Under the pieces are notes generated by a model, which was not told the DNA's origin, did no database searches, and worked only from the letters and a program-made list of their open reading frames with translations. A stretch of DNA of 64,000 nt from a phage, in sequence record PZ738962.1. One strand, written 5' to 3'. Shown here in pieces: positions 41 through 8,520 of this stretch. The stretch's first letter is position 1. Every line of letters begins with the position of its first letter. Made by a program: the position numbers and the translations under genes.

Positions 41-1810
41 ATGATTGAACAATTAAACATCCACGAGATCCCACATGTTGACGGTGTACCAAGCGAAGGA
101 CAGCACCGTATTAACTGGATCAAGAATGGCGAATGTTTAAGCGCAGCAACGACACAGACTGGCAATGACGGGACGCTTAACCGCGCCCCGGTTGCAATTC
201 AAGAAAACGTTGCACGCGTAAACGAAAACGCAAAATCAACCGTCGCTAAAGTTAACGAGGTTGTAACGGCGGTTAACGATATTAAAACAACTTTAGGGGT
301 AATTTCTGACGGAAGTATCATTGATGTGGTTAACCAGACTGTCGCAAAAGTTGAATCCGTCGAAGATAACTTAGGAGAAACAGCAAGAACTCTACAAACA
401 ACGGTAGACGCTGTATCAGAACTTAACATCAAGATTGGTGATCGCCCCGCTGCCGATCCTAGCACAAGAACAATCTATGATGACATTTCTTTCATCAAAC
501 AAGAAATGGGTTCTTATCCTAACTTTAATATCAATGGTTCCCCTGATGCTGGCAGTTCCGGTTCTGGCATCAAATACCGAGTTATTCAGAATACCGCAGC
601 ATTAAATGACCACGGTCGCCGAATCATTCAGCTTGAAAACGACTGGCAAGATTCTGACGTAGGCGAGTTAACAAAACAAGTTAACAAAATGCGCAGTGAG
701 ATCGGCGACACGTCTCTTGCAACACAAGAAAATGTGTATGTTCGTCTCCGCACCAACGCAAGAAACATTGCTAACTTATCAAACGAAGTTCTAGAAGTCA
801 AGAAAGCAATTTTGTTTGATTCAATCCCTGATATCGGGACTAAAGTCACTACGCTGGAAACTAATTATGAACGTCTAAACAATGATGTTAATGGTGTAGA
901 TTCCGGTATTCGTCCTCGTCTTCTGGCTGTCGAGAATAAGATCGGAACGCCTCAATCGGCTGGAAGCATTGATTATCGATTAACCAACACAGAGCGAGAA
1001 TTTTTAGATCTTAAACAGGTTGTTGGTGTAAGCGGTGCTGACGGTTTGCGCGGTGAAGTTGTTCGACTTTCCAATGAGATTGGCACTGACAGCGATCGAC
1101 ATACTCTAGCCGGACGTATTAAAGTTGTAGAAAACACTCAGGGTCGGTTAGAAGCAAGCGTACAGGACATGGAACAGATTGTAGGTGATCGCGAATCAGG
1201 TTTGACCGCTGGCGTTATTAAACTATCAAGTGATATCTATGGCGATGATGGTTCAGAAGATCCATTTACTCAGAAAGGCGTGATTAAAATCGTCAAAGAG
1301 CTACAAACATCTAACGGAAACAAAGTAGATGATGTACCTGATGACGGTTTCCATTATCTGCGTAAGCGCGGAGAATGGGTGCAAGTTGCATATGCTGCTG
1401 GAGCATTTAAAAATACCGCAGATATTACGGTTGAACTGGACGAACAGGATGTTTATAAACCGATTCCGCTTAACGACATGGCGGAAGAAGTTAATGCGCG
1501 TCAAATGGTGAAAAGTGAATCTGTTATTACCGTTCAGGACAAAGGTTTATTCCGTTGTGTATTCCGTTGTGCTGTACAAGCTCAACATAATGCAACATTC
1601 ATTGTTGCGATTTTCAAAAATGGACAGATGATACATGAAGCGAAAAATGGTCATTACGGCACAGACGAATTGATCAGCTATTCTACCAGTGCTTTCCTAA
1701 ATATTGAAAAGGGCGATCAGATTAACATCCGTATTAAGGGTGTATCTGCCGAAGCAGTAGCACAGCCAGTACAAATTAAAGAGTTCCTCTTTGGGATTTC
1801 TCCGGTATAA
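41..1810 (+). CDS. wac: fibritin (whisker/neck fibre) with foldon-like motif and extra C-terminal domain
   Basis: 589 aa; N-terminus ...PHVDGVPSEGQHRINWIKNGE resembles T4 Wac N-terminus (recalled); foldon-like GFHYLRKRGEWV; about 140 aa follow the foldon; position upstream of gene 13. Confidence 0.7.
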   Translation: MIEQLNIHEIPHVDGVPSEGQHRINWIKNGECLSAATTQTGNDGTLNRAPVAIQENVARVNENAKSTVAKVNEVVTAVNDIKTTLGVISDGSIIDVVNQTVAKVESVEDNLGETARTLQTTVDAVSELNIKIGDRPAADPSTRTIYDDISFIKQEMGSYPNFNINGSPDAGSSGSGIKYRVIQNTAALNDHGRRIIQLENDWQDSDVGELTKQVNKMRSEIGDTSLATQENVYVRLRTNARNIANLSNEVLEVKKAILFDSIPDIGTKVTTLETNYERLNNDVNGVDSGIRPRLLAVENKIGTPQSAGSIDYRLTNTEREFLDLKQVVGVSGADGLRGEVVRLSNEIGTDSDRHTLAGRIKVVENTQGRLEASVQDMEQIVGDRESGLTAGVIKLSSDIYGDDGSEDPFTQKGVIKIVKELQTSNGNKVDDVPDDGFHYLRKRGEWVQVAYAAGAFKNTADITVELDEQDVYKPIPLNDMAEEVNARQMVKSESVITVQDKGLFRCVFRCAVQAQHNATFIVAIFKNGQMIHEAKNGHYGTDELISYSTSAFLNIEKGDQINIRIKGVSAEAVAQPVQIKEFLFGISPV

Positions 1811-1816
1811 GAAATT

Positions 1817-1840
1817 AAAGGGGCGTTAAGCCCCTTTTTC
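1817..1840 (+). terminator. GC hairpin (ggggc-gttaa-gcccc) plus T-run downstream of wac
   Basis: stem-loop followed by TTTTT read directly. Confidence 0.5.
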
Positions 1841-1856
1841 GTTTATAGGTGATATT

Positions 1857-3606: not shown

Positions 3607-4362
3607 ATGAAAAACTATTATCTATACGAAATAAAGAACAATATAAATGGTAAGATATATGTTGGCATTCGTGGGTATGATGGTGACATAAGTCAAGATC
3701 CTTATATGGGTAGTGGATTGACTCTTAAGAGGTCTATTAAAAAGAACGGGATAGAAAACTTCACAAAAACAATTCTCAAAACGTTTGACTCATGGAAAGA
3801 GGCAAGGAAAGCAGAAAGAGAAATAGTTACAGAGGAATTTGTAAAAAGAGAAGATACCTATAATGTTTCGGTTGGTGGACAAGGTGGAAATACTCACGCT
3901 GGGATGAGCGAAGAACGAAGAAAACTTGCAAGCGAAAGACACGCAGAAGCAAACCGAAATAGAGTATGGAAGCAAGAATCTAGAGATAAGGTTAGCGCAA
4001 GATTCAAAGGTCATAAGCTATCACAGAAGCAGATAGACGCGCTAAAGAAGGCAAACACAGGAAGAAAGTTCACAGAAGAACACAAGTTCAAAATAGGTAA
4101 AACGTGGCGAGGAAAGAAACGACCAGATATAGGAGAGAAGGTTGCGGCAAAATTAACAGGGAGAAAACTACCCCCAGAACATGTGGCAGCAATAACGCAA
4201 AATACACCGAGAGGAAAACAACACTTTAGGGCAAAAAGATTCTTCATCGACGATATGGAATTTTATATTTTGAGTGACGCAGCTAAAATGTTTGGTATAA
4301 GTTATAAAACGGTTAAAGCTAGACTTCTCTCAGATAAGTTTCCTACATGGAGATATGAATAA
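3607..4362 (+). CDS. GIY-YIG homing endonuclease (Seg-like), free-standing between genes 14 and 15
   Basis: 251 aa; N-terminal YLYEIKNNINGKIYVGIRG (GIY...YIG-like); internal KFTEEHKFKIGKTWRGKKRP / KLTGRKLPPEHVAAIT repeat motifs; C-terminal helix-turn-helix-like tail; no T4 gene at this position. Confidence 0.65.
   Translation: MKNYYLYEIKNNINGKIYVGIRGYDGDISQDPYMGSGLTLKRSIKKNGIENFTKTILKTFDSWKEARKAEREIVTEEFVKREDTYNVSVGGQGGNTHAGMSEERRKLASERHAEANRNRVWKQESRDKVSARFKGHKLSQKQIDALKKANTGRKFTEEHKFKIGKTWRGKKRPDIGEKVAAKLTGRKLPPEHVAAITQNTPRGKQHFRAKRFFIDDMEFYILSDAAKMFGISYKTVKARLLSDKFPTWRYE

Positions 4363-5209: not shown

Positions 5210-8520
<3,311 letters not shown>

Follow-up and report, generated by a model that had tools for sequence, protein, structure and literature searches.

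The fibritin of an RB49-like phage has a predicted C1q/TNF-like head behind a foldon-like motif

The wac gene encodes fibritin (Wac), the neck whisker or collar fibre of T4-type phages. In the phage sequence record PZ738962.1, of which a stretch of 64,000 nucleotides (nt), here called the window, was analysed, the Wac protein continues past a foldon-like motif into an additional C-terminal domain, which is predicted to be a jelly-roll head of the C1q/TNF/BclA type. The foldon-like hairpin and the head probably act together as a trimerisation nucleus and, at the far end of the whisker, as a docking tip whose most likely partners are the long tail fibres. The initial annotation, made from the sequence of the window, treated the extension as an unusual discovery. 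It is not: the extra domain is an already published feature of RB49 Wac, which is nearly the same protein, the DNA of the two wac genes being 99% identical.

By homology and location, the open reading frame (ORF) is the fibritin gene of an RB49-like T4-type phage of the genus Krischvirus. A megablast search with this ORF matched 58 phage genomes, all of them Krischvirus (RB49-like coliphages); at the DNA level it shares 99.0% identity with RB49 wac, and as much as 99.8% with other isolates. The protein differs from RB49 Wac (NP_891719 / AAP04366) in 9 amino acids (aa), that is, the identity is 98.5%; both are 589 aa long, the locus is the same and the heads are 98% identical, and hence the protein is of the RB49 type. 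In PHROGs it matches phrog_1056, 'fibritin neck whisker' (E 2.4e-187), and T4 fibritin (PDB 2bsg) aligns with it continuously over aa 6–427 (E 3.9e-50). All features of a T4-type fibritin are present: the N-terminal domain, the location between gp12 and gp13, the homologous shaft and the Fibritin_C foldon motif.

The motif GFHYLRKRGEWVQV occupies aa 436–449 (nt 1346–1387), and residue 450 begins at nt 1388. Its resemblance to a foldon is greater than chance would give. Pfam Fibritin_C (PF07921) matches aa 368–451 with E 6.5e-31 and 106.8 bits, the cut-off being 21, and the match spans positions 2–92 of the 93 in the profile; the 168-aa C-terminal fragment alone still yields E 3.2e-6. When a profile of the last 168 residues of the family was compared with all PDB sequences, the only matches were to chains of the T4 foldon and to foldons used as fusion tags; each of them fell on profile positions 7–28 (22 positions, aa 428–449). 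Residues 456–480 of the T4 foldon align with aa 425–449; 10 of the 25 are identical, and the core P-DG--Y-RK-GEWV is retained. In the AlphaFold2 model described below the motif is a hairpin (model strands 17–21 and 24–28). It is also the most conserved segment of the C-terminal region, with column conservation of 0.98 in Krischvirus and 0.85 among 12 homologues; for the residues immediately upstream the values are 0.73 and 0.55, respectively. Being the most conserved part of this region, the segment is under constraint and no relic.

The reading frame is single and unbroken up to the terminal ...IKEFLFGISPV and the TAA stop at 1808–1810. The alignment with T4 Wac bears out the initial description, in which about 140 residues followed the foldon-like motif and T4 fibritin ended right after its foldon. 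T4 fibritin (487 aa) stops 7 residues past the aligned foldon, so that about 135 residues here have no T4 counterpart; the foldon is not at the true C-terminus, and the extra residues do not come from a wrong stop or frame. The length of 589 aa is common to all 58 matching genomes, and a tblastn search with the head alone retrieved 58 records, all of them Krischvirus fibritins. Metagenomic homologues of 587–591 aa, down to 30% identity, lie in the same gp12-wac-gp13 position. Syntenic homologues with 53%, 41% and 30% identity retain the arrangement of motif and head, as does the Wac of Serratia phage 92A1. Compared with the JSE allele, the ratio of nonsynonymous to synonymous divergence (dN/dS) is 0.18 for the head, as compared to 0.08 for the shaft, which shows purifying selection. 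The variation of the head is concentrated in aa 459–498 and in strand E, and its C-terminal half (the E-F loop and strands F, G and H) is nearly invariant across the genus.

The fold was modelled with AlphaFold2 as a monomer of aa 422–589, using an alignment of 11 family members of 20–85% identity. The model has a mean predicted local distance difference test (pLDDT) score of 86 and a predicted template modelling (pTM) score of 0.77. In it the foldon-like motif forms a beta-hairpin, after which come ten strands, in agreement with the separate beta-rich globular domain first suggested from the translation. The strands are predicted to form the ten-strand antiparallel jelly roll of the C1q/TNF/BclA_C superfamily. 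A Foldseek search of predicted viral structures gave 442 matches at E<=1e-3, many of them annotated as phage proteins with C1q domains or collagen repeats, and the predicted fold is one used by many phage receptor-binding tips. BclA_C (PF18573) matches are found in 8 of the 11 family members, the best with E 3.7e-7. The extension thus appears to be a C1q/TNF/BclA-type jelly-roll head. Two Pfam results for the window protein itself weaken this assignment: it scores below the cut-offs both for BclA_C (E 2.4e-4, 21.4 bits, cut-off 38) and for C1q (PF00386; E 0.022, 15.4 bits, cut-off 23.7), and hence the assignment rests on a predicted monomer model from only 11 sequences. Domains of the C1q/TNF/BclA type typically cap trimeric fibres, and the fold family is trimeric. 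Since fibritin is a trimer as well (PMC3797505), the head presumably packs as a trimer.

Sequence searches with the head led back to its own family. Against PDB sequences, the head alone yielded only a chance-level match to CTLA-4 (E 0.71), and the family profile had no match over the head. An exhaustive phmmer search of 1.84 billion representatives retrieved the own fibritin family and one weak match (P0025), and no donor lineage could be identified among them; a word-indexed homologue search with the head alone gave two fragments of 110 aa. The second-best structural match to the model of motif and head is a stand-alone, uncharacterised protein of 159 aa from Klebsiella phage KPV15 (BFVD A0A1J0MHA5), with E 6.6e-11, 23% identity and template modelling scores of 0.72–0.76.

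The RB49 protein has been described before. Letarov and Krisch in 2013 list RB49 among eight types of fibritin C-termini (PMC3797505), and the RB49-type fibritin is also credited to Letarov et al. 2005, as cited there. According to the same review, the small foldon alone folds and trimerises only the T4 and JS98 fibritins, and the RB49 fibritin requires sequences in its expanded C-terminal domain for folding and trimerisation, which is the only experimental statement found (PMC3797505). A paper of 2022 states that the RB49-like Wac has a C-terminal moiety unrelated to T4 (PMC9569957); the conserved foldon-like hairpin preceding the head qualifies this statement. Within a limited literature search, no paper assigning a C1q/TNF-like fold to any fibritin was found. 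Relative to the literature on RB49 Wac, added here are the foldon-like motif just upstream of the expanded domain and the assignment of the latter to the C1q/TNF-like fold.

We propose the following role for the hairpin and the head. The N-terminal domain would anchor the Wac trimer to the gp13 neck ring, as the N-terminal domain of T4 fibritin binds domain III of gp13 (PMC12929629), and the long segmented coiled coil would form the whisker or collar fibre. The trimer of hairpin and head would set the register of the chains at the C-terminus and nucleate their folding, the coiled coil zipping up from there; in T4 this job is done by the 27-residue foldon alone. The head would also take the place of the bare foldon as the exposed surface at the whisker tip, and the tip would dock the long tail fibres, while these are being attached as well as in their retracted state. 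The identity of the protein, the motif, the additional domain and its predicted fold come from the present analysis, the need for trimerisation from the literature, and we infer the trimeric packing and the docking.

Docking of the tail fibres by the whisker tip is the most likely function by analogy, as the C-terminal end of T4 fibritin contacts the long tail fibre near its knee (PMC3797505). Also counted in its favour is the enlarged gp36 of RB49 (496 aa). The Wac of Serratia phage 92A1 (25860–27635; 591 aa, 30% identical) has the same foldon-like motif and head, and this phage also has a full-length match to RB49 gp36, with 33% identity over 97% of the query. Of the 60 gp36 records listed, that of phage 92A1 is the only one from outside Krischvirus; beyond these lie about eight more with a coverage of at least 80%. 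The pairing of an RB49-type Wac with a full-length match to RB49 gp36 may be a small positive hint for docking, and shared ancestry could explain it equally well. In other genera, a search with the gp36 C-terminus was uninformative, since the first 44 residues of this segment form a motif common in tail fibres.

Other observations count against docking. Within Krischvirus, no covariation is seen between the head alleles and gp35, gp36 or the gp37 N-terminus. In ECD7, JK32 and their relatives the head is 80–81% identical, but gp36 is 97–99.8% identical to that of RB49, with 99.8% in ECD7 and JK32; in phage kvi, the head is 97% identical, but gp36 only 92.9% and the gp37 N-terminus 53%; and gp35 is 94–100% identical throughout the genus. 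Hence there is no within-genus support for a co-evolving contact between the head and the tail fibre. Moreover, no experiment on the contact between RB49 whiskers and fibres was found in the literature. The missing covariation does not refute docking, since the contact surface could be the invariant part of the head.

The history of the alleles bears on the alternatives. Between RB49 and JSE, the proteins gp9, gp13, gp14, gp15 and gp16 are 97–100% identical, whereas gp11, gp12 and Wac are only 73–78% identical. For gp10 the overall identity is 90%, and the diverged block, with synonymous divergence of about 1–1.7, spans gp10, gp11, gp12 and wac. In the same comparison, the synonymous divergence (dS) is 0.9–1.7 in wac as compared to 0.2 in gp13, which places wac in an old allele block with the short-tail-fibre genes. 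The wac gene of ECD7 (ECD7 6654–8423) is a chimera: it resembles the gene of the window over gene nt 1–1398, with 7 mismatches, and from about nt 1431 to the stop it is JSE-like (98–100%). The recombination patch of about 340 nt replaces most of the head. Judging from these comparisons, the head behaves as an exchangeable module, its alleles being uncoupled from the tail-fibre knee genes.

One alternative is that the head is an accessory adhesin or lectin, so that the whisker tips reversibly bind the host surface (lipopolysaccharide (LPS), O-antigen sugars) independently of the long tail fibres, and the virion is concentrated at the cell or senses its surface. The initial annotation had already suggested that the extension could be a receptor-binding or sensor domain on the whiskers. 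We regard an adhesin role as possible but doubtful. In its favour count the place of wac beside gp11 and gp12 in a block of alleles that diverged long ago (73–78% identity, as against at least 97% in gp9 and gp13), the exchange of the head alone in ECD7, the uncoupling of its alleles from the tail-fibre genes, and a dN/dS about twice as high in the head as in the shaft. Letarov and Krisch proposed such a role for the immunoglobulin-like (Ig-like) domains of RB43 fibritin (PMC3797505), and k-mers predictive of LPS-sugar specificity map partly to the fibritin gene beside gp12, although this may be mere linkage (bioRxiv 10.64898/2026.04.02.716166). However, a dN/dS of 0.18 still means clear purifying selection, the allele classes are few, and there is no hypervariable tip; the part of the head that includes the E-F loop hardly varies in the genus, and no host-binding role is known for T4 fibritin (PMC3741392).

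In a bolder version, which we consider unlikely, the whiskers and collar fibres would give RB49-like phages a second means of sensing the host, acting like a lectin on a surface glycan of E. coli. A few ancient head alleles would then be kept and exchanged by recombination, as in ECD7, with or without the LPS-binding cassette of gp12. If true, a host-sensing head would help to explain the broad host range and the O-antigen tolerance of RB49-like phages.

It is improbable that the head is only a cap for folding and stability, a bigger foldon with no partner, its variation being neutral drift and hitch-hiking with the gp12 cassette. The published biochemistry gives it a trimerisation role only (PMC3797505), the head alleles are interchangeable across shaft and tail-fibre backgrounds, and P22-like phages stay infectious when the TNF-like knob on their coiled-coil needle is exchanged or the T4 foldon is put in its place (PMC3741392). 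On the other hand, a domain of 137 residues, constant in length from 30% to 99% identity and with conserved surface loops, exceeds what a 27-residue foldon needs to nucleate a trimer, and the equivalent tip in T4 does have a partner (PMC3797505). Finally, the explanation of the extension as an artefact (a missed stop or frameshift, or fusion to the gene downstream, in a protein that really ends at the foldon) is refuted beyond practical doubt by the unbroken frame of 589 aa in 58 independent genomes and in metagenomic contigs, by the purifying selection across the extension, the confident globular model and the terminator-like hairpin after the stop, and by the fact that the RB49 fibritin has already been expressed and studied as a protein (PMC3797505).

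The preferred reading, a trimerisation nucleus with a docking tip, may be compared with the known systems. T4 fibritin (PDB 2bsg, 1aa0 and the 1rfo foldon) shares the N-terminal domain, the shaft and the foldon-like hairpin. There the foldon alone nucleates the trimer, whereas the protein described here continues for 140 residues that are reportedly needed for folding (PMC3797505); hence it does not belong to the T4/JS98 subtype, whose chain ends with the foldon and trimerises by means of it alone. The fibritins of JS98 (two foldons), RB43 (Ig-like domains) and Aeh1 (a large domain and a chaperone) have different C-terminal modules, but the principle is the same, in that the N-terminus and the shaft are conserved and the C-terminal module is swapped (PMC3797505). 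The C1q/TNF/BclA heads (PF00386, PF18573; PDB 4oul, 1wck, 1rj7) are 8–20% identical in sequence to the head described here; C1q and BclA proteins have a collagen triple-helix stalk, whereas here the head follows an alpha-helical coiled coil and the foldon-like hairpin, with no Gly-X-Y repeats upstream. The tail needle knob of the Sf6/HS1 type in P22-like phages (PDB 3rwn, 4k6b) belongs to another virion protein, gp26, and is a seven-strand variant; unlike the RB49-type head, it has no foldon-like element. The RB49-type head, in turn, has no sequence relatives detectable beyond its own fibritin family among the 1.84 billion representatives.

As a discovery the extension matters little, since the RB49-type fibritin with its enlarged C-terminal domain was described in 2005 and 2013. 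The small additions are a predicted fold for the domain, the finding that the foldon-like motif is strongly conserved, and the head-only recombination patch in ECD7. Residues 432–589 provide a concrete construct for asking whether the whiskers bind tail fibres, host glycans or nothing, and the motif with the head is a candidate natural "foldon plus head" trimerisation unit.

The features of the gene and its surroundings are collected in Table 1. The ATG of wac shares 1 nt with the stop of the upstream gp12 gene. Downstream lie genes matching T4-type gp13 (from 1857), gp14, gp15, gp16, gp17 and gp18, and the order gp12-wac-gp13, the location of a T4-type fibritin, is as in RB49, JSE and ECD7. 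The hairpin and T-run that follow wac may function as a terminator.

Table 1. The wac gene of the window, its domains and adjacent elements. Positions are those of the window.
Feature	Position	Strand	Residues	Description or basis
wac (fibritin) gene	41..1810	+	589 aa + stop	Neck whisker/collar fibre, RB49-type
N-terminal neck-attachment domain	41..220	+	~1–60	T4 structures 1ox3 and 2ibl align with aa 7–84 (E ~2e-15)
Fibrous shaft	221..1333	+	~61–431	Homologous to the T4 segmented coiled coil, by alignment
Foldon-like beta-hairpin VPDDGFHYLRKRGEWVQV	1334..1387	+	432–449	Pfam Fibritin_C; PDB foldon chains; modelled hairpin
Extension	1388..1807	+	450–589	3-residue linker and C1q/TNF-like 10-strand jelly-roll head (predicted)
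Head	1397..1807	+	453–589 (137 residues)	Predicted jelly roll
ECD7 breakpoint interval	1438..1471	+	466–477 (gene nt 1398–1431)	Sliding-window DNA identity, mismatch positions, per-segment protein identity
Terminator-like hairpin AAAGGGGCGTTAAGCCCCTTT and T-run	1817..1845 (hairpin 1817–1837)	+		Consensus scan; 7 nt past the wac stop

Other observations concern mobile elements. The large terminase subunit gp17 (window 5704–8520) has 938 aa as compared to 607 aa in RB49, and is 99.7% identical to it outside an insert of 331 aa (nt 6196–7188, aa 165–495) that splits the Walker A motif (SRQLGK | ... THN | T). The insert matches LAGLIDADG, and the His-Asn at its end with Thr next to it is intein-like; the gp17 of ECD7 likewise has 938 aa. 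Between gp14 and gp15 there is an ORF of 251 aa (window 3607–4362) that combines a DNA-binding domain of the I-TevI type with a weak match to SegE GIY-YIG, which makes it a free-standing homing endonuclease. JSE has this ORF too, whereas RB49 lacks it; in ECD7, a segC-like endonuclease is found between gp13 and gp14 instead. On the metagenomic contig carrying P0018 (10819–13770), the large terminase subunit is apparently split into two ORFs; the first, of 569 aa, has endonuclease-like Pfam matches (weak Phage_endo_I, Tn7_TnsA-like_N), and the second has at least 459 aa. Here, too, a mobile element has probably inserted into gp17, in this case that of a related phage.
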